Below, piece after piece: positions 34,883 to 43,410 of a stretch of 64,000 nucleotides of DNA. Source of the stretch: Gemmatimonadaceae bacterium (GTDB taxonomy: Bacteria; Gemmatimonadota; Gemmatimonadetes; Gemmatimonadales; Gemmatimonadaceae); contig JABAQJ010000002.1 in NCBI GenBank assembly GCA_019186945.1, positions 149,897 through 213,896 on the forward strand, in the 5' to 3' direction. Every line of letters begins with the position of its first letter. Within the stretch, counting starts at the first letter, position 1. The notes beneath the pieces are model-generated. The model did no database searches and was not told the origin of the DNA. It saw nothing but the letters and a program-made list of their open reading frames with translations. A program made the position numbers and the translations under genes.

Positions 34883-36943
34883 ATGCCGGACACGACGACC
34901 GCCAGTGCTCTCCCCACCGCCCCGGTGGCGGGGCGGTCCGGGCTGGTCATCGCTCTGGCGCATGCGCTGCACAAGCGCGCCATCTACCCTGTCTCCCACC
35001 CGTTGCTCGGCGCGGCAGTACAGCGGTTCGTGTCCCGCGCGATCGAGGGCCTCGACCGGGATGGTCCGATAGCGATCGGCGTCGCCCACTCGCAACTGGT
35101 GATCGATGGTGTTGCAGTCGACGGTGAGCAGAGGGTGCTTTCCGAATTGGCGTCGCATCTGCATGCGCACCAGCTTGCCGGCCTCCGCCTGCTGCCCGGT
35201 GCGACGGCGACAGAACTCGAGGATCTCGTGGCCATCCTGGCCACTCCGGCCGATCGTGTCGACAAACCGCTCGGACAACTCTCCGACGACGAGTTGCATC
35301 GCTGGCGACATGTCGCGTTGTTGCGGGCGCGGTTCGAACGGCTCGGATTGGCAGAGGATGATTCGCCGACCGCCGGCGACGAAGGCGAGCATCCGATATG
35401 GCTCGCGCTCGCACTCTCTGCGCTGGATCAGGACGAGCTCCCTCCCGACGCTGACGTCTCCACGGGGGCGATGGCGGCACGAATGGAGGCACAGGTTCAA
35501 TCCGGGGATGCCACGCAAGCTCGTCGTGCAGCTAACGCGTTGGTTCAGTTGACCGAAGGACTGGCCCAGGCAGCCAAGCGAAATGCGCTGGCTCCGGCCA
35601 TGCAGCAGCGTGCGTCGGACCTGGTGCAGGCGCTCGCGCCAGAGACACTCCGGCGACTCCTGACCATCATCGGCGAAGATACTCGTGCTCGTTTGATGAC
35701 GCAGGCCACTGACGTCTTTAACGCCAGGGCACTCATCGACATTCTCGCGGCTGGTGCGGCCGCCGGCGGTAAGCTCGTCAGCGACTCGATGATCCGCCTG
35801 TTCGGGAAGTTGGCGCGGAACAGTGAAGACCGCGGCAGACATGGCGGCCGAACGGACGCCGTTCTCCGTACACAGGTTCGCCGCCAGCTTGCCGATTGGA
35901 TGCTCGACGACCCGAACCCGGACAGGTACAGCGAACTGCTGCGCGACCTTGGGCAAGGCGAGGCTCCCGCGATCGTCGACGGCGACGGCGAGATCTCCAC
36001 GATCGAACCCGAGCGTCTGCTCGAGATCTCGTTGGAGATTGGTGCGTTGAGCCCATCAACCGAATCCGCCGTCACGCTCCTCGTCGAGCGCGATGGGCTT
36101 GCCGCACTCCTCGATCGACTCGTCGGCTACCCGTGGAGCGACACTCGCGAAGCGATCATCGACTCGCTGGTCAATGGCGTAGTCCTTCGTGAACAGCTTG
36201 CCGTCGAGCGTCCGGACATGCGTGTGCTGATACACGCCGTTGCCCGCCTCAAGTCGCGCGCAGTGGATCCGCTGCTGGACATGTTGCAGCAGCGAAACCC
36301 CGAGGAGTGTCCGTGGGTGGTCGATCTCCTGGTGCAGGTGGGCCCCGATGCGCTACCGTTCCTTGACCAAAGGATCGATTCGTTGCAGCCGGGGATGCAA
36401 CGCCTGCTCCTGTTCGTCTATGAGCGACTCGGAGGCTGGCCGGAAAAGGATCTCCTGCGGATGTTGTGTCGCCACGAGGATGCGTCGCTCCGGCGCGAAG
36501 CGTTTCGCCTTGGGGTACGTCACGCTTCGCTGCGGAACGAACTGTTGGTGGCCGGTGCTAGAGATGAGGATACCCGTATCCTGGCCCTGGTAATCGCGAA
36601 GGCCGGAAGAGCATGTGACCGCCGACTTGCCGCGGTGCTCATGGAGCGCCTTGAGCAGGATGAACGTGTGAGCGACGAGTTGCGTGCACGTGCCGTTCGC
36701 GCAATCGCCACCTGCGACGGGGAGGAAACACTGCGGTGGCTGACGCGTCGCCCGCTGACGCAGCAGTGGCTCTTCCGTTATACGAAGCTCCGCAAAGGTA
36801 CGCTCGAGATGTATGCGTGCATTGCCGCGCTGGCCACTCGGCATGCTCATGCGCCTTCAGCGAGTCTTGCATTGCTGTTGGCGCGTCGTAACCGGGACCA
36901 CGGTTACCGGCGAGCGGCAGCCGCCGAACCAGTCGTGGGATGA
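34883..36943 (+). CDS. DUF3391-like N-domain plus HEAT/armadillo-type repeat protein
   Basis: The N-terminal ~150 aa align with the N-domain of the downstream HD-GYP protein (LVIALAHALHKRAIYPVSHP... versus FLISFAQALARMSLYAEGHP...). The C-terminal half consists of helical repeats. Its stop overlaps the HD-GYP start (ATGA). Confidence 0.5.
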   Translation: MPDTTTASALPTAPVAGRSGLVIALAHALHKRAIYPVSHPLLGAAVQRFVSRAIEGLDRDGPIAIGVAHSQLVIDGVAVDGEQRVLSELASHLHAHQLAGLRLLPGATATELEDLVAILATPADRVDKPLGQLSDDELHRWRHVALLRARFERLGLAEDDSPTAGDEGEHPIWLALALSALDQDELPPDADVSTGAMAARMEAQVQSGDATQARRAANALVQLTEGLAQAAKRNALAPAMQQRASDLVQALAPETLRRLLTIIGEDTRARLMTQATDVFNARALIDILAAGAAAGGKLVSDSMIRLFGKLARNSEDRGRHGGRTDAVLRTQVRRQLADWMLDDPNPDRYSELLRDLGQGEAPAIVDGDGEISTIEPERLLEISLEIGALSPSTESAVTLLVERDGLAALLDRLVGYPWSDTREAIIDSLVNGVVLREQLAVERPDMRVLIHAVARLKSRAVDPLLDMLQQRNPEECPWVVDLLVQVGPDALPFLDQRIDSLQPGMQRLLLFVYERLGGWPEKDLLRMLCRHEDASLRREAFRLGVRHASLRNELLVAGARDEDTRILALVIAKAGRACDRRLAAVLMERLEQDERVSDELRARAVRAIATCDGEETLRWLTRRPLTQQWLFRYTKLRKGTLEMYACIAALATRHAHAPSASLALLLARRNRDHGYRRAAAAEPVVG

Positions 36944-38148
36944 CAGACGCGCATCAGTTCCTCATCTCGTTCGCACAGGCGCTGGCGCGCATGTCGCTCT
37001 ACGCCGAGGGACATCCTGCGCGTGCCGCGGCTGCAGAGGTGTCGTTTCGCCGCCTGCGAACGTTGCAGCAGGCGGATCCACGGCAGAGTTTCTCCTTCGT
37101 TGGGCGGGAGGTCATCTACGGCCAGCACGCGCTCCGCGAACTGCAGGACTGGGATTGGGCCGAACATCTTTCCGCGGCGGGCGTGCAGCGCCTCGAGTTC
37201 GATGCCGAAGTGGGGCCGGAGGAGTACCGGGAGTTCCTCGCCGAGATTCTTGGGCGACTGGGGCTTCACGCCGCGGCCGCGGCGCCACGGATGGCGCGGC
37301 CGGCGCGTCCCACACCCATCCGGTTCGGCGCGATCGGTGTGCGCGACGCTGCGTCGGAGTCGTCCATCGATGGCGAGGAAGGTACAGCGGGGAGCGGGCG
37401 ATGGGACTCGCGAATCGTCGATTTTTCCGAGGAAGCGGAAGCCGTGCAGTGGATGCACGAAGCCGTGACTTCGGGTCAACGCCTGCCGTGGTCGGAAGCG
37501 GAACTGGTCGTCGCCTCGCTATCGACGGCCATGCATAACGAGCGAGAAGTGCTTCTCCCTTTGCTGACCCTGAAGGACTTCGACCAGTACACGACGACGC
37601 ACTCCATCAACGTCTCCGTCCTGGCGATGGGGCTGGCGGAAGCGCTGGGCCTGTCGGCGCGGGAGGTTCGCGCCTATGGCGTCGCGGGCCTGCTTCATGA
37701 CCTCGGCAAGGTACGGGTTCCCGTTGATGTGCTGCGCAAGCCAGGGGCGCTCAACGAGCACGAGCGGCGGTTGCTGAATCAGCATCCGGTGGATGGGGCC
37801 CGGCTGATCCTTGCCGGCAGCCGCAAGCACGACATGTGCGCGGCCGTCGCTTTCGAGCATCATATCATGATCGATGGTGGAGGCTATCCGCAGCGGCATA
37901 CGCGCCGGGATTGTCATCATGCGTCGCTCCTGGTGCATGCTTGCGACGTCTTCGATGCTCTGCGAACGCATCGCCCCTATCGTGTTGCCTGGGGTATGGC
38001 GTCGATCCTGGCATACATCGAACGGCGGGTTGGTGCCGAGTTCCACCCCGACGTCGCGGTTCCGTTCGTACGGATGCTGCGCACGTGGGAGATGCGGCAG
38101 GCGGCTGCATCTGCATTGGAGGAAGAAGCGGTCCCGGCTGCGCTATAG
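36940..38148 (+). CDS. HD-GYP domain c-di-GMP phosphodiesterase with a DUF3391-like N-domain
   Basis: HD motif (GLLHDLGK), HH, and GGGYP in the C-terminal half. Confidence 0.85.
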   Translation: MTDAHQFLISFAQALARMSLYAEGHPARAAAAEVSFRRLRTLQQADPRQSFSFVGREVIYGQHALRELQDWDWAEHLSAAGVQRLEFDAEVGPEEYREFLAEILGRLGLHAAAAAPRMARPARPTPIRFGAIGVRDAASESSIDGEEGTAGSGRWDSRIVDFSEEAEAVQWMHEAVTSGQRLPWSEAELVVASLSTAMHNEREVLLPLLTLKDFDQYTTTHSINVSVLAMGLAEALGLSAREVRAYGVAGLLHDLGKVRVPVDVLRKPGALNEHERRLLNQHPVDGARLILAGSRKHDMCAAVAFEHHIMIDGGGYPQRHTRRDCHHASLLVHACDVFDALRTHRPYRVAWGMASILAYIERRVGAEFHPDVAVPFVRMLRTWEMRQAAASALEEEAVPAAL

Positions 38149-38301
38149 AGTTGCAGCAGCGGGCCCCGGAGTGCCTGACGGCATGAGAGAACGTGGCGTC
38201 GCCAGCCGATCGATGTCAAAGCGCTCCGAGCGGAAAGATGACAAGCGATCGTCGCCATCAGTTGTGCGCACGCGGAGCCTTCGTACAACAGCTATTCAGC
38301 G

Positions 38302-39018
38302 TTAGGCTCCGCAGGCCTTCATCTGGCCCCTACGTTGATACACGAGTTCTTCCGCAAGCCCGCCTTGCACGTGCTTCGCCTCGTCGACGTAGCTGACGAT
38401 ATCCGGAATTCCTCTTGCCACAAGCAACTCGACAACCCACTCGCCTCGCGGCCGTCGCCGCTTCCAGTCCTCAATCGGGTAATCCGAAAGCGAAAGGACA
38501 GTCTCTCGACCACGGGGGTGCGGATAGGGTTTGGTCGCACCGCTGTTCATTGGTGAGAGCAATGCTGACCTACCGTGTTTCGCTAGCAGATCGGCCGTGC
38601 GAACCTTGAGCACAAGTTGGCGCTTGGTCCGATACGCTCGCGCAGAAAGCAATCGGCTGAGTCTGGATTCCGAGGTCCAAAAGAACACGTGACGATTCAG
38701 CATCTCGTACCAGTCACGAGGCGTGAGGCCGTCCTCAAGAGCGCGCGACAGTCCCTTGTCGTCCATCGGTTTCTGATCGCGTATCACCGCTCGGCCGTGA
38801 ATAGGATGGTTGATCGTCACCGGCTTCCTTCGGTGCACCGACTCAATCGGTCCTCGGTCGTCGGCACGCACCTCGAAGAGATCAAGTAGGGCCGACGTAC
38901 TGAGAAGCCCATGCCTGACGATACTTTCCCACGATCCCGCTTCGGCCATGTGGTACACCCACGGAAACAAGCGTGCCAGTTCCTCTGCAGTCACGCCGCG
39001 GACTGACGCGTCAGTCAT
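38302..39018 (-). CDS. DarT/DUF4433-like putative ADP-ribosyltransferase (family assignment tentative)
   Basis: The N-terminal FPWVYHMAEAGSWESIVRHGLLS resembles the DarT opening (YH.T...NL.SIL..GLL). HVFFWTSE and GEWVVELLV resemble the later DarT beta strands, including the catalytic-Glu region. The start was placed at the first ATG, and the track ORF extends 3 codons further upstream to a GTG. Confidence 0.45.
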   Translation of the reverse strand: MTDASVRGVTAEELARLFPWVYHMAEAGSWESIVRHGLLSTSALLDLFEVRADDRGPIESVHRRKPVTINHPIHGRAVIRDQKPMDDKGLSRALEDGLTPRDWYEMLNRHVFFWTSESRLSRLLSARAYRTKRQLVLKVRTADLLAKHGRSALLSPMNSGATKPYPHPRGRETVLSLSDYPIEDWKRRRPRGEWVVELLVARGIPDIVSYVDEAKHVQGGLAEELVYQRRGQMKACGA

Positions 39019-39242
39019 GGTCCCCACGAACGGCGGTCGATAATACTGCGAAAGTGGAATTGCGTCGAACTGGGGGACACTGGTGCGGATGCCACTCTCT
39101 CGATCTCCTCGATAAACCCGATCGTTTCGTCGATAAGCTGCTCGAAGCGACGTGCCGCCTTGTTCTTGACCGAGACGTAGGCCGCGAAAGTGAGGGCGAA
39201 ATCGGTAGGAGCGTTGAGCGATGCAGCCTTGCGCAACAACAC
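39015..39242 (-). CDS. small ORF (75 aa) overlapping the DarT-like gene start by ATGA; function unknown, possibly its partner/antitoxin or a truncated remnant
   Basis: The stop TGA (39015-39017) overlaps the ATG (39016-39018) of the downstream gene. No motif recognised. Confidence 0.3.
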   Translation of the reverse strand: MLLRKAASLNAPTDFALTFAAYVSVKNKAARRFEQLIDETIGFIEEIERVASAPVSPSSTQFHFRSIIDRRSWGP

Positions 39243-39293
39243 CCGCTCAAACTCGCCGACCAGCCTGAGGGTTCCCCCGTCCTTTCTCCACGG

Positions 39294-39701
39294 TTAGGCA
39301 GACTGTCGGACCCAGGGTGAGGGAGAAAACGTACGGGCGTACTCGCTCGGGGTTAAGGGAGAGCAGGCTTCGTGGGGCCGTTCCACGTTGTACGCGCGTC
39401 GCCAGCGCTCGATGTGAAAGCGGGCATCCTCCAACGATAGGAAGTAGTGCTGGTTCAGGCACTCGTCGCGAAAGCGCCCGTTGAACGACTCGATATGTGC
39501 GTTCTGGATCGGCTTGCCCGACTGAATGAAGGCGAGCGCGATGCCCCGATCCGCCGCCCAGGCATCGAAGGCGCGACTGCGAGACTCGCTGCCGTTGTCG
39601 AGGGAGAGTCGCACCGGCAGGCCGCTGGGATCGGCACCATCACCGAGAAGAAGCACTGACGGGTTTGTCCAGCGGCTGCTTTGTCGTCTTGTGTGAGTCA
39701 T
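39294..39701 (-). pseudogene. IS3-family transposase (OrfB, rve integrase core) C-terminal remnant
   Basis: LSLDNGSE...FDAWAADRGIALAFIQSGKPIQNAHIESFNGRFRDECLNQHYF...RWRRAYNVERPH is the conserved end of IS3 OrfB. The N-terminal ~200 aa and OrfA are missing. Confidence 0.7.
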
Positions 39702-39734
39702 GCGGACTTCAATCCGAAAATGCGAAGTGGAGAT

Positions 39735-40952
39735 TCACGGAATCGTGAGCGAACATGCAGAGCGAGTTGAGCCTATGAACTTCTCCAGCGACCATAGTTC
39801 CGGCCGAATGTCCTCATGGTAGTTCTCGTGAATCGGCTTGGGAACAACGAGAACGACCCCCGCGGCCTTCATCTGCGCGTACTGCTTAGGTGAGACTCCT
39901 TGCTGCAGCGTCAGCAAGTGCTTGGTCGGGAGCCGCTCTGCCTCGTCGATGACTTGGCGCCATCTGTCCTTGCACGTCGTTTTCACAGCAAGCATGCGTA
40001 GACGTTCTACCGGCCACTGTCCATCCTGATACGCACTCGCCGAGGGAAAGAGGAAATCCGGCCTCTTCCCATGTTCGGATTCCTCGCCGTGTGAATACGG
40101 AACGCCCTCTTCATCGAAGATGGCTCTCGCGTGCAACTCCAGCGAGGCGCCGTGCCGTGACTTGCGACGATTCAGTACCGTACTCGCCAGGTCCGTGAAC
40201 AGCTTGACTGAAGCAAACCCCTCTTTGATTCGAGGCAAGACGACGGCACTCTCAATAGAGTAGAAGATCCCGGTCTCGCAATCGTGACGTCGAATGAGTC
40301 GTTTGTCGGGAGGGTCCTCGCTGCTCGTCGGTAACCGATCGATCGCAAGCTTGACCACTGTTGCCACGTTTGGCCATGTGTAGAACCACTCGTTAGGGAT
40401 CTGCCCCGCCGTCAGCATGCACGAGGCATCACGCGGCCTCTCCTCGGCACGTTGATCCCTCGGCAGGTACACGCCAGCTCGAAAGGTTACGCCGCGACCA
40501 GGTTCCACCGGCCCGACGCGGCCGAGGATCGCCTCCTCCTCGTCCAGGTCACGGGCGATCCAAATGCGACAAAGCTCAGCATCACTGCCTTCGTGCCGAT
40601 AAAACGCGAACACAGTGAGAGCGCCGGTGTTGTCCGGATCAAGGAGCTTTGACTTGCTGCCGCCCCAGCCGGTGAAGTGGCACTCGTTTCGCGTCTTTCT
40701 GTTGTACCAGATCATCGCTGGCTTGCCCTGATCGTCGTGCGAGTCGATCAGCGCCGTGATCGTCGCGCGCGGATTCATCAGGTCCTCGCGTACGATCGAA
40801 GGAAAAACTTCGAACGCGAAAGCTTTCGGAATGTAGGGTCCTGCTTGATGTGCTTTGGTGAGGAGCGTGTCGTTGCCGGCGAGGTATTTCACGTACCACT
40901 GCCAACCGTCGTCGGACACGAGATCAATCCACTCGTCGAGCGTGTGACTCAT
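39735..40952 (-). CDS. EcoRII-family type IIE restriction endonuclease (CCWGG-specific family)
   Basis: The 405-aa protein is collinear with recalled R.EcoRII (404 aa): LAGNDT, LFPSI, GWGGSKSKLLDPDNTGALTVFAF, NRRKSRHGASLELH, and KRPDFLFPSASAYQDGQWPVERLRMLAVKTTCKDRWRQV, which is almost identical to the EcoRII catalytic region. Confidence 0.85.
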   Translation of the reverse strand: MSHTLDEWIDLVSDDGWQWYVKYLAGNDTLLTKAHQAGPYIPKAFAFEVFPSIVREDLMNPRATITALIDSHDDQGKPAMIWYNRKTRNECHFTGWGGSKSKLLDPDNTGALTVFAFYRHEGSDAELCRIWIARDLDEEEAILGRVGPVEPGRGVTFRAGVYLPRDQRAEERPRDASCMLTAGQIPNEWFYTWPNVATVVKLAIDRLPTSSEDPPDKRLIRRHDCETGIFYSIESAVVLPRIKEGFASVKLFTDLASTVLNRRKSRHGASLELHARAIFDEEGVPYSHGEESEHGKRPDFLFPSASAYQDGQWPVERLRMLAVKTTCKDRWRQVIDEAERLPTKHLLTLQQGVSPKQYAQMKAAGVVLVVPKPIHENYHEDIRPELWSLEKFIGSTRSACSLTIP

Positions 40953-41362
40953 GCTATCGCCCGGATGCGATCCGCCAGCCTTTCAAGCGCGCGTTCGTTC
41001 CCGACCTCACATTCCCAGATCGTGATCGGCTTCCACCCGAGACCGTGAAGCTGTTGATCGATTCGCCGATCACGTTTCGCGTTACCAGTGAGCTTCTCCA
41101 TCCAGAAGCTGCGATTCGAACTTGGCATATACGCGTATCTGCACCCCCGGTGTCGGTGCCAGAAGCATCCGTGCACGTGGACGACAGCGCGGTACTTCGG
41201 AAACACCAGATCGGGCTTTCCTGGCAGGTTCCTTCCGTGCAGCCGAAACCGTAGGCCACTTCGGTGAAGAAAACTGCGCACCACCAGTTCAGGCTTCGTG
41301 TTCTTGCCCCGGATCCCCGACATCATTCGACTGCGCGTCTTTCTGTCAACGATGTCAGCCAT
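40949..41362 (-). CDS. vsr: very-short-patch-repair endonuclease Vsr
   Basis: GIRGKNTKPELVVRSFLHRSGLRFRLH...PDLVFPKYRAVVHVHGCFWHRH...W are Vsr signature blocks. Its stop overlaps the restriction endonuclease start (ATGA). Confidence 0.85.
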   Translation of the reverse strand: MADIVDRKTRSRMMSGIRGKNTKPELVVRSFLHRSGLRFRLHGRNLPGKPDLVFPKYRAVVHVHGCFWHRHRGCRYAYMPSSNRSFWMEKLTGNAKRDRRIDQQLHGLGWKPITIWECEVGNERALERLADRIRAIA

Positions 41363-41375
41363 GGTGGCGTCCGAC

Positions 41376-42656
41376 TCAGGCTGTTCTCGCGACCAGAGGA
41401 AGCGTCAGCTGGTCGGCCGCAACGGGTTCTCCCAGAATGAAAGGCCGCATGGCCCTCGCAACGGCCTCAACGACTGGCACCACAACAGAATTCCCGAACT
41501 GGCGGTAGGCCTGCGTGTCCGAGACTGGAATCTGGAAGCCCGAGTGACCCGGCTTGTCGAAACCCATGAGACGAGCGCACTCGCGAGGCGTTAGGCGCCG
41601 CGGCGGTTGCCTGTGCCCGCGCTTCACCAGGATCTCTGAACCATCCTTGTGATACCGGGCGGACAATGTGCGGGCCACGTCCTCTGGCCCGAACAAGCCG
41701 AAGCCGAACCCGTTTCCGAGGCTGCGATGCTTGGCGGCATAGTCCCGGAGGTACTGCCACAGGTGATTCGTCAGCGTGTACTTCTGTGCGACCCGACCCT
41801 TGCCGTCGGTGTAGGGCGACTCCGGCAGTTCCGTGCCATCCTCAGGATGCAGGATGGACCTCAGCCGCGGTCCGACTGAGGCTTGTGGCATGTCCAGCGC
41901 GTCCCAGGAAAACCCAGTCTCGTCGCGGAAGCCAACGATGAAGATCCGCTCTCGATGCTGCGGCACGAAACCACGGGCATCGAGGACCTTCCAGGACACG
42001 TGGTACTTGAGTTCATCGGTAAGCACGGAACGGATCGTCCGAAACGTCCGGCCGCCATCGTGGCTCGCCAGGTTCTTGACGTTCTCGAGGAGGAACGCCT
42101 TCGGACGATGGTGTCGGAGAATCCGAGCGACTTCGTAGAAGAGCGTCCCCTGTGCGTCGCACGCAAAGCCGTGCGGTCGGCCAAGTGCGTTCTTCTTCGA
42201 AACGCCGGCCAAGGAGAACGGCTGGCACGGGAAGCCGGCCAGCAGGACATCATGCGCGGGAATTGTCTCCGATGCGATCGGTATGATGTCACCGGCAACC
42301 GGATGGTCGCTGGGGAAATTCGCCTTGTACGTCAGCTGCGCGTACTTGTCGCGCTCGGACGTGAACACACACTCGCCCCCGATCGACTCGAAGCCGCGCC
42401 GAAGGCCGCCAATGCCAGCGAACAGGTCAATGAACCGGAAACGGTTCCTAGCGCGATCGGTGCTCGGCAGGCGAGCAGAGGCCAGCAGCTCGAACGCCGC
42501 ACGTCTCGGTTTGGCAGCGCCCGTCTCCCATCGATGTATCGTCTTCGAGCTATACCCAACTCGTTCTGCCACTTCGCCTTGAGAGAGACCCATGCTCTCA
42601 CGAAGGGCTCGGAACTCATCGGAAGTAACGTCTCGGAGAGCGAATGATGGGGACAT
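41376..42656 (-). CDS. Dcm/M.EcoRII-type DNA (cytosine-5)-methyltransferase with an N-terminal XRE-type HTH domain
   Basis: C5-MTase motif [17 protein letters not shown], motif [10 protein letters not shown] and ENV are present. The N-terminal ~60 aa form an HTH ([23 protein letters not shown]), as in the autoregulatory N-termini of M.SsoII/M.EcoRII. The start was set at the internal ATG preceding the HTH. Confidence 0.85.
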
Positions 42657-43071
42657 TTTGTGGACATTATGTCTGCTTGCAATAACGCACAAGGCCTTCC
42701 TGGACAGCCCGTCTCGTCGCCGCTGCACCAGAATGCACCGAAAATATACCGAAGGAGGCTGATAGGCAATCGTTTCAGGAGAGGCTGCGACGGCGAGGTG
42801 GCAACGTCGCCGGCTGCCTCGGATTCATTCGTGCCGGCTTCCGTTCGCGTTCCAGCGCTCGCCGAAGGGACCGCAGCTCCTTCCGCAACGTGCGCACTAC
42901 CTCGCCGACTGACTTTGACGTTTTCCTCTTCTTGCTCATGCACCCAGCGTATCACCGACGCGCCTAACGAGGAGACGTGGACGGTTGCCGATTTCGCCAA
43001 CGGCGCATTCCGAGCCTAACGACAACAGCCGGCTTCTTCATTGTCGTGCGTCCCTGCGAGAGACTGTGAAG

Positions 43072-43410
43072 ATGCGATTCGACGACGCGCACATCACGTA
43101 CTTTGGCCGCACAACGTTCCGGAACGCCGGAGTGCCCTTTGGCATTCGTCGGTGCGACCGACGGTATCACTTCTACGCGATCGGGAAGACGGGCATGGGC
43201 AAGTCGACGCTCCTCGCGACGATGCTGCATCAGGACGTGCTTGCTGGCGAGGGCTTCGCCTTGTTCGACCCGCACGGTAACCTCGCCGACCGGGTACTCC
43301 GATTCATCCCCAGCGCACGCCGCGCGGAGCTCATCCACCTGAACGTGCCCGACCCGGACCTAAAGTGGTCCTTCAACCCATTCGCGGGTGTTGCGGCGGA
43401 CTTTGCAAAA
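43072..43410 (+). pseudogene. N-terminal fragment (~110 aa) of a HerA/TraD/VirD4-class P-loop NTPase, truncated at the tRNA gene
   Basis: Walker A YHFYAIGKTGMGKSTLL, then DPHGNL and ...LNVPDPDLKWSFNPF typical of coupling-protein/HerA-like ATPases. The reading frame then runs straight into the tRNA-Pro sequence. Confidence 0.45.

Follow-up and report, generated by a model that had tools for sequence, protein, structure and literature searches.

Introduction

DarTG is a toxin-antitoxin and anti-phage system, in which DarT (DUF4433/PF14487) is an ADP-ribosyltransferase (ART) acting on single-stranded DNA (ssDNA), and DarG is a macrodomain antitoxin. A distant homologue of DarT, Lmac_3114, was described in a 2025 survey of Legionella ARTs (BMC Genomics, PMC12522546), where it was characterized by the motifs Hxx/FFW/xxE, was predicted to target DNA, and was placed in the H-Y-E clade, its nearest relatives being DarT and Tpt1. 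The same work mentions an AAA/kinase domain and reports that in 60% of cases a gene for adenylosuccinate synthetase (AdSS) is close by, a link that was read as regulation of purines or NAD+. In this study, we analyzed a gene with a predicted DarT-like fold in a 64,000-nucleotide stretch of DNA from a Gemmatimonadaceae bacterium (assembly GCA_019186945.1, contig JABAQJ010000002.1, positions 149,897 to 213,896; the whole stretch is called the window hereafter). The gene lies on the minus strand at 38302..39018, is intact, and encodes a protein of 238 amino acids (aa) belonging to the DUF7002 family; a 75-aa open reading frame (ORF) overlaps its start. An earlier note on this DNA had taken the two for a DarT/DUF4433-like toxin candidate and its non-canonical partner, or else for a disrupted pair. 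We found that the 238-aa gene is the last gene of an ancestral operon, and the sole survivor of three.

Our literature search returned no paper on DUF7002 and no experimental paper on an ART-AdSS system, the 2025 survey being the only work found. The association of ART with AdSS has thus already been noted bioinformatically; the macrodomain-peptidase partner and the PurZ-type signature described below are in no paper found.

Results

The 238-aa ORF, whose coordinates (39018..38302) were as the earlier note had given them, is a real gene. Translation may begin at the ATG at 39018 or, alternatively, at a GTG at 39027, which would give 241 aa. Its product matches PF22531 (DUF7002) with 228.7 bits against a Pfam cut-off of 27 (E 5.9e-68), from residue 20 to 211 and from position 2 to 195 of the 195 in the profile. 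Scoring of candidates gave more than 2,100 homologues similar to it in length, the close ones all with PF22531. These homologues come mainly from soil metagenomes, Gemmatimonadota, Myxococcota, Acidobacteriota, Verrucomicrobiota, Planctomycetota and Alphaproteobacteria; DUF7002 is also present on plasmids of Rhizobium, Agrobacterium, Ralstonia and Burkholderia. Residues invariant in an alignment of 42 sequences include H23, S40/T41, R55, R63, R80-D81-Q82, W103-Y104 and N108, as well as F113-W114, R119, Y129, N158, G160, R169 and E197, and the window protein keeps every family-invariant residue. The peptide blocks VYHMAEAGSWESIVRHGLLS, HVFFW and GEWVVELLV, from which the DarT likeness had been proposed, are indeed present, and they hold H23, F112/F113/W114 and E197, respectively. 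H23 and E197 are invariant in 80/80 relatives, and both are placed on strands in an AlphaFold2 model. PADLOC and NCBIfam scans of the 238-aa protein gave no matches.

The AlphaFold2 model, built from the family alignment, has a mean pLDDT of 91.8 and a pTM of 0.88. When it was compared with known structures, DarT structures were the nearest, followed by OspC3 (7.9), Tpt1 (7.7) and toxins of the cholera/pertussis type (~6.5); the top Foldseek match was 8baq (E 4e-5). As modeled, then, the 238-aa protein is a protein of the ADP-ribosyltransferase fold, with DarT as its nearest solved neighbor.

The 75-aa ORF (39242..39015, minus strand, GTG start) proved to be of a different nature than proposed. 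Its position was given correctly by the earlier note, and so was the ATGA overlap, which reads TCAT on the plus strand at 39015-39018, with the ATG of the ART gene at 39018-39016 lying over the TGA at 39017-39015. Judged from its alignment, however, the ORF is the leftover tail of a kinase-AdSS gene, and no gene of its own. The nearest relative of the window ART (P0001, 73% identity) is encoded directly after a 534-aa protein with AAA_18/AAA_33 kinase and Adenylsucc_synt domains. In a tblastn search with the 534-aa protein of locus L001, only residues 454-534 had a counterpart in the window, at 39266..39024 and 83% identical; DNA at 39259-39036 aligns to L001 5760-5983. The L001 protein contains ...EWVLLRKAASLNAPTD..., and its end reads ...GEFEWVLLRKAASLNAPTDIALTFADYISVKNK...FHFRSIIDRRAW. 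The 75-aa ORF is collinear with this end, its GTG start being the Val of EW-V-LLRK, and is contained in a 3' stub of the kinase-AdSS-like gene, which occupies 39015..39266 on the minus strand. It matches NCBIfam PRK04293 (archaeal-type AdSS) at positions 264-334 of 337, that is, at the C-terminal end, and gave no match in a Pfam scan; compared with PF00709 (adenylosuccinate synthetase), the window ORF holds the last 81 residues only and no complete catalytic domain. Its homologues bear the name adenylosuccinate synthase, and every match of a search seeded with the stub, a word-indexed search biased towards short proteins, was a C-terminal piece of AdSS, 65-132 aa long. The possibility of a small ORF of a type II toxin-antitoxin system was rejected on account of the collinearity with residues 454-534 of an enzyme and of the start at an internal Val, and the antitoxin role that had been proposed for this ORF fell with it. 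Since the stop-start overlap of the second and third genes is 4 nt in 27/50 junctions of relatives, the ATGA overlap in the window is the ancestral junction of these genes.

Upstream of the stub, the missing part of the operon is replaced by a fragment of an insertion sequence (IS) of the IS3 family. Read along the minus strand, the order is the 5' end of a gene encoding an M78 peptidase-macrodomain protein (M78-macro; 39701 to ~39644), the IS3 fragment (to ~39260), the AdSS stub (39266-39015) and the ART gene; the boundaries of the IS3 fragment were drawn at the points where the sequence ceases to be homologous to the relatives' operon. The first segment, 39644..39701 (ATG at 39701), comprises the first ~20-25 codons of its gene and runs in frame into the fragment at 39260..39643, which carries the C-terminal ~110 codons of the integrase core of the transposase (stop at 39294), and whose element end, ...CCCTCA, abuts the stub. 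The 135-aa ORF at 39701..39294 (minus strand) is therefore a chimera of the two. Its residues 53-118 match the rve_3 integrase-core domain (E 3.7e-25), in agreement with the IS3 remnant reported in the earlier note. Its N-terminus, MTHTRRQSSRWTNPSVLLLGDGADP, matches that of M78-macro (L001: ...SSGRWTNPSVLLLAGSGDP), and the peptide RWTNPSVLLLGDGADP corresponds to RWTNPSVLLLAGSGDP of L001 and to the family-invariant W13, S17 and P27. DNA at 39680-39644 aligns with L001 2963-2999, identical in 31/37 positions, and this is the part of the gene where it would be expected.

Thus, an IS3-family element and a deletion of ~2.8 kb removed the operon from codon ~20-25 of gene 1 through codon 453 of gene 2; the lost stretch of the operon corresponds to L001 3000-5759, and the left part of the IS is missing too. 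Compared with an IS3-family insertion sequence, the remnant is a fragment, without the complete transposase (orfA/orfB) flanked by terminal inverted repeats that defines such an element, and neither a second IS3 copy nor a left IS end is present in the window. We are highly confident of this anatomy of the relic, in which the 5' end of gene 1 is joined to the IS3 fragment, and the latter to the last 81 codons of gene 2 and the ART gene; the suggestion that the pair might be a disrupted one was thus borne out. No other part of the M78-macro gene was found in the window by tblastn, and the ALC1-like macrodomain region of the relatives' protein gave nothing above chance in the whole 64 kb, other families of ADP-ribosyl hydrolases not having been searched. 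The absence of a macrodomain gene from the window, as claimed previously, was in this sense confirmed, and the partner is missing because of the IS3-associated deletion.

The window ART is present on 14 contigs, and the six that were compared share this arrangement with 100% identity over 1,560 bp; the six stem from as many sequencing runs, all of one series. With such identity, population variation is uninformative as a gauge of selection.

The composition of the ancestral operon was derived from 80 genome loci encoding DUF7002, whose ORFs were searched for the two upstream proteins of L001. At 74 of these loci a class could be called, the other 6 having too little upstream DNA. The M78-protein gene, kinase-AdSS and DUF7002 occur together at 40 loci, kinase-AdSS and DUF7002 at 13, and DUF7002 alone at 21, so kinase-AdSS lies directly upstream of DUF7002 in 53/74. 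Intact three-gene operons are carried, for example, by Gemmatimonadaceae JBJMNO010000001.1 (L005) and Roseomonas vinacea (L024), and a two-gene form by Aminobacter sp. UC22_36 (L066). The lack of a DarG partner, stressed in the earlier note, holds for the window; it does not hold for the relatives, which carry a macrodomain gene two genes upstream at 40/74 loci. No other conserved neighbors of DUF7002 were found in the 74 loci, and a helix-turn-helix (HTH) gene stands beside the M78 gene at only 4/40, on which ground a conserved HTH repressor partner was rejected. On plasmids, 11/11 full-length kinase-AdSS fusions adjoin DUF7002, and 2/13 DUF7002 genes are without the fusion.

The solo genes (L013, L018, L027, L030, L031, L036, L038, L040, L041, L046-L048, L051, L052, L054, L060, L063, L070, L071, L081 and L084) form essentially one clade, mostly of Acetobacteraceae, and keep all catalytic residues. 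No AdSS remnant was detected at these loci by tblastn, and clustering of neighboring ORFs gave shadow ORFs only. The window ART groups in the three-gene clade, beside a Gemmatimonadaceae locus.

In several relatives the AdSS gene is broken and the ART gene is intact, by inversion (L094/L095), internal deletion (L096) or frameshift (L033, L080, L097); sampling of these cases is biased, as the search seeded with the 75-aa stub favored short proteins. At L094 (3600-5350) and L095 (400-2150), the first ~1.25 kb of kinase-AdSS points the opposite way to the last 114 codons of that gene and to the ART gene, and of the macrodomain gene no more than the last ~80 codons remain. Flipping L094 3729-4976 would restore an in-frame gene with a Shine-Dalgarno sequence and a start after the macrodomain stop. 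A programmed invertible AdSS switch was rejected as a general mechanism, because the junctions are without inverted repeats and the other 114-aa cases are due to deletion or frameshift. Dozens of distinct metagenomic ORFs of exactly 114 aa (P0122-P0240) correspond to the AdSS C-terminus counted from the conserved Met of 'SGPM'. Three examples that we examined are disrupted or contig-truncated AdSS genes, and such ORFs arose by deletion of residues ~239-390 in L096 and by frameshift in L097, with intact DUF7002 downstream. The 114-aa ORFs may reflect recurrent inactivation of AdSS or ascertainment bias.

The second gene of the operon encodes an AdSS fused to a kinase. The 534-aa protein of relatives matches PF00709 at E 5e-55 (187 bits, Pfam cut-off 27), and among solved structures its AdSS part is closest to the Pyrococcus horikoshii enzyme (E 8e-78), followed by PurZ of phage phiVC8 (1.5e-51) and ordinary PurA; it stays below the curated NCBIfam cut-offs for PurZ (NF038379, 214.7 bits vs 300) and PRK04293 (269 vs 368). 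When aligned to E. coli PurA, it keeps K16, N38, H41, T129, Q224 and the T300/T301 region. Its P-loop reads G-S-E-G-K-G in 49/50 sequences, that is, the catalytic Asp13 is changed to Ser. In PurA this Asp13 is conserved to 99%, and all phage PurZ (100%) have Ser in its place (PMC12884076); in S-2L PurZ, S23 is one of the PurZ-specific residues contacting the substrate (PMC8342488). The change suggests that this AdSS would act on a substrate other than IMP, possibly on a guanine nucleotide. At the N-terminus lies a P-loop nucleotide kinase domain, in which Walker A is found in 46/50 sequences; it weakly resembles the kinase domain of a kinase-fused defensive dCTP deaminase ('dCTPase' in PADLOC, E 6e-5); the PADLOC scan of the fusion gave weak matches of the kinase domain only. 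Rhizobium and Sinorhizobium plasmids (H38-H48) bear short, kinase-less, archaeal-type AdSS paralogues, whose identity to the AdSS domain over residues 187-532 is 31-37% and which are not beside DUF7002.

Gene 1 combines two domains. The last ~160 residues of a profile made of 30 proteins match solved macrodomains, the best being BT1257 (2afc/2fg1, E 3e-47) and Streptomyces coelicolor SCO6735 (5e3b, E 3e-43), followed by ALC1 (E 1e-20) and TARG1 (E 4e-11), and the N-terminal part matches IrrE (E 2.5e-11) and CapP (E 1.4e-8), with HExxH invariant in the family. A PADLOC scan of gene 1 returned only CapP and DarG-like matches. By this profile comparison, the macrodomain is of the ALC1-like class (SCO6735/BT1257/TARG1/DarG). 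In a hidden Markov model (HMM) alignment, V25, N27, Q85, G87, G126 and G128 of SCO6735 correspond to V310, N311, Q370, G372, G410 and G412, which are invariant or nearly so; His24 corresponds to H308 of L001, in a mostly-His column that is replaced in some members and is not among the conserved ones. H24, V25, N27, Q85, G126 and G128 make up the catalytic set of SCO6735. SCO6735 was shown to reverse the thymidine-linked DNA ADP-ribosylation made by DarT (PMC9411070). It is plausible that the product of gene 1 is an active hydrolase of the DarG type fused to a metallopeptidase of the regulatory type. A plasmid search seeded with the macrodomain found stand-alone SCO6735-like macrodomains only, and no DarG/DarT pairs.

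Directly upstream of the relic and co-directional with it lies a complete restriction-modification (R-M) module of the EcoRII type (39735-42728), all on the minus strand, with an EcoRII-N/EcoRII-C endonuclease (39735-40952), a Vsr mismatch endonuclease (40949-41362) and an HTH-fused C5 cytosine methyltransferase (Dcm; 41376-42728). The G+C content is 0.58-0.60 over ~38200-43200 and 0.64-0.70 on both sides; the drop from 0.64-0.66 at ~38.2 kb fits the island edge indicated in the earlier note. This islet of ~5 kb, with the ART relic, the IS3 fragment and the R-M genes, suggests horizontal acquisition.

A terminator-like hairpin with a T-rich tail lies at 38244..38256 (minus strand), 46 nt past the ART stop, and is a weak match to the consensus; the scan found 1 site against 1.3 expected from shuffled sequences, so that the hairpin alone is not significant. 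A sigma70-like site, TCGACG-17-TATTAT, is present at 39040-39068 (minus strand) within the AdSS stub, 22 nt ahead of the ART start. Its -10 element arises from S-I-I codons, for which L001 uses AGC ATC ATC, and the site is absent there. This single consensus match could be an own promoter of the orphan ART gene, and is probably fortuitous; as it is not conserved in L001, we did not rely on it.

On the other side, a pair of plus-strand genes (34883-38148) converges on the ART gene and is kept in all contigs of the population. A 686-aa ORF at 34883-36943, without a Pfam match, overlaps by 4 nt an HD_5/HD-GYP-like gene at 36940-38148. Among the relatives, intact systems have defense or mobile-element genes as neighbors. 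For example, the system of L001 is near a ThiF-E1/multi-ubiquitin (Bil-like) cluster and an XRE HTH gene (L001 1-2606), and that of L003 is near GmrSD and a Ser/Thr kinase (L003 9122-12627). On a Burkholderia thailandensis plasmid (L087 1-5103 and 8044-12274), the system is surrounded by genes for a DDE-type transposase with an adjoining ATP-binding protein, an integrase and a PDDEXK nuclease.

Discussion

In the window the operon has decayed, and what had been supposed to be an antitoxin is the stub of a gene. Taken as a whole, the locus likely represents an intact DarT-like ART gene left over from a DarTG-like three-gene operon that was broken by an IS3-family element. The relic matters for what it indicates, namely that the DarT-like enzymes of the DUF7002 family are mostly coupled to a kinase-fused AdSS bearing the hallmark of PurZ, and that they often follow a peptidase-macrodomain fusion, the macrodomain of which is of the class known to erase the DNA modification made by DarT.

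For the mechanism of the intact system we can offer only a tentative proposal. Using NAD+, the ART would ADP-ribosylate a base of a nucleic acid, which by analogy with DarT is probably ssDNA, and the macrodomain would reverse this modification, as do DarG and SCO6735. The M78 peptidase and the kinase-AdSS might add sensing of infection or damage, or else a second nucleotide-directed activity, exerted on a guanine or inosine nucleotide. The most economical model would thus be a DarTG-like module elaborated by a peptidase and a kinase-fused AdSS of the PurZ type. Possibly, though at somewhat less than even chances, the intact relatives constitute an uncharacterized, widespread and mobile three-component conflict system, present in many phyla of soil bacteria and on plasmids. 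In it, the ART, the protease-fused macrodomain and the kinase-fused AdSS would work jointly and might, for example, couple guanine-nucleotide chemistry, be it succinylation, depletion or synthesis of an unusual nucleotide, to reversible ADP-ribosylation of nucleic acids during phage infection. In the window, the system would be inactivated, and the orphan ART would be either silent or tolerated alone, as in the natural solo lineage of DUF7002; its transcription, if any, would likely result from read-through from the co-directional EcoRII R-M genes.

Several points weigh against the relic of a DarTG-like operon as an interpretation. A profile link to DarT is absent: hmmscan against Pfam at E<=1 gave PF22531 and a chance match to DUF723 only, DarT was not among the NCBIfam and PADLOC matches, and no DarT chain was found at E<=10 when the family profile was compared with sequences of the Protein Data Bank (PDB). 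Membership in DUF4433 (PF14487) or DarT by sequence was rejected on these grounds, and the assignment to DarT is therefore held at the level of fold only; of the claim of DarT/DUF4433 likeness, the fold stood, as modeled by AlphaFold2 and compared by Foldseek, and membership in DUF4433, with no DarT model at E<=1, did not. The use of NAD+, the target and the toxicity of DUF7002 proteins are properties that we infer, and docking of NAD+ into Lmac_3114 was reported to be atypical (PMC12522546). DUF7002 is probably the family of Lmac_3114, as judged from motifs, taxa and neighborhood. The 21/74 solo loci, together with 13 more devoid of the macrodomain, argue against a simple logic of lethal toxin and macrodomain antitoxin. 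Moreover, kinase-AdSS fusions were never seen without the ART, and AdSS is broken in several loci with the ART intact.

It is conceivable, although we consider it somewhat unlikely, that the orphan ART is functional alone in defense or regulation, like the solo DUF7002 of Acetobacteraceae, and is expressed from the upstream EcoRII R-M operon. Conservation of the family-invariant residues in the window protein would fit this explanation, and so would the solo DUF7002 genes, which group coherently in a clade, keep their catalytic residues and have no conserved neighbor. The genes for Dcm, Vsr and EcoRII, the chimeric ORF, the stub and the ART gene are co-directional and separated by very small gaps, the terminator-like hairpin being found only after the last of them, and the arrangement recurs in the 14 contigs carrying the ART. 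However, the window ART belongs to the three-gene clade rather than to the solo one, the complete identity of the six compared contigs provides no evidence of selection, and intactness of the ART sequence may simply reflect a recent deletion.

A second alternative concerns the intact system, and we regard it as unlikely: the ART would not be a DNA toxin like DarT, and the PurZ-like kinase-AdSS would be the effector, acting on the guanine or inosine pool, whereas the ART and the macrodomain would reversibly ADP-ribosylate the enzyme or a small nucleotide. ADP-ribosylation would then control AdSS, or make a signal sensed by the macrodomain-peptidase. The C-terminal domain of IrrE is a sensor, and in gene 1 the macrodomain takes that place. 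Kinase-AdSS fusions were never seen without DUF7002 (11/11 on plasmids), whereas DUF7002 does occur alone, and it is AdSS whose gene turned out to be broken time and again; AdSS might in this case be a costly effector with the ART as its controller. The weak likeness of the kinase domain to that of the defensive dCTP deaminase and the change of Asp13 to Ser, which points to a substrate other than IMP, such as (d)GMP, are compatible with such a role, and the atypical docking of NAD+ into Lmac_3114 also speaks for it. Against these observations stand the nearest structural neighbors of the ART, which are DNA-modifying DarTs, and the class of the macrodomain, which is unified by the ability to reverse thymidine-linked DNA ADP-ribosylation and whose catalytic residues are kept; the sampling of broken AdSS genes, as mentioned above, is biased.

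Finally, that the 75-aa ORF works with the ART as a non-canonical two-gene toxin-antitoxin or defense pair, in which the AdSS tail would neutralize the ART by virtue of translational coupling, appears very improbable despite the intact ATGA overlap, the identity of the arrangement in the six compared contigs of 14, and the many metagenomic loci that keep a short AdSS C-terminal ORF (often of 114 aa) before an intact DUF7002 gene, with the rest of AdSS inverted, deleted or frameshifted: the stub is the interior of a single-domain AdSS fold and part of its nucleotide and aspartate site, unlikely to fold alone; it starts only at an internal Val (GTG), with no clear Shine-Dalgarno sequence; a deletion sparing the ART start must also spare the adjoining 3' end of AdSS, so that retention of the stub is expected without selection; the disruptions at other loci differ in kind, which indicates decay rather than design; 21 solo loci are without an AdSS remnant; and the stub-seeded search favored short proteins.

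If the intact system is truly anti-phage, it would join the chemistry of nucleotide pools to ADP-ribosylation of nucleic acids, and would supply a bacterial relative of the phage enzyme for 2-aminoadenine DNA. Loci with three genes, with two, with DUF7002 alone or with an IS-truncated operon occur naturally and are at hand as genetic controls for distinguishing the toxic from the protective component.

These loci can be compared with several known systems. Like DarT, DUF7002 proteins have a predicted ART fold, in which an invariant His and Glu may belong to a site of the H-Y-E type, but they form a separate sequence family without an HMM match, and their middle motif is FFW instead of Y-x-x. 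As in DarTG, the operons of relatives encode a macrodomain of the ALC1-like class of DarG; it is, however, of the SCO6735 type, in which Gln replaces the catalytic Lys, is fused to an M78 peptidase similar to IrrE and CapP, and lacks the C-terminal DarT-binding domain of DarG. Unlike in DarTG, in relatives the macrodomain gene and the ART gene are separated by a kinase-AdSS gene, whose translation is coupled to that of the ART gene, and many DUF7002 loci are without the macrodomain or without both partners, the window copy having lost both. With the IrrE/PprI-DdrO and CapP-CapH systems, gene 1 shares the M78 domain, the invariant HExxH and the matches to the IrrE and CapP profiles, but not a conserved HTH repressor gene (4/40 loci), and in comparison with IrrE the C-terminal sensor domain appears to be replaced by a macrodomain that looks catalytically competent. 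In this case the window contributes the first ~20-25 codons of gene 1 only.

DUF7002 also resembles Lmac_3114, whose set of motifs is present in DUF7002 as H23-M-A, F112-F113-W114 and V-V-E197. AdSS is a neighbor in ~60% of cases there and in 72% of DUF7002 loci here, and the host taxa overlap (Rhizobium, Burkholderia, Ralstonia, Acidobacteria and the PVC group); the M78-macrodomain partner, the change of Asp13 to Ser and the solo clade are not part of that description. The AdSS of gene 2, in turn, is short and archaeal in type, retains N38, H41, K16, T129 and Q224, and shares with PurZ its hallmark Ser at the position of Asp13, a criterion that applies to the relatives only, as the window stub is without the P-loop. 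Where PurA has T-K-L-D, it has T-F-x-D, with the Asp at the guanine-specificity position kept. In contrast to phage PurZ, the enzyme is fused to an N-terminal P-loop kinase, is bacterial and either chromosomal or plasmid-borne, and is linked to an ART rather than to DatZ, MazZ or DpoZ. Such a bacterial PurZ-like enzyme could be an evolutionary link between archaeal PurA and PurZ of phages.

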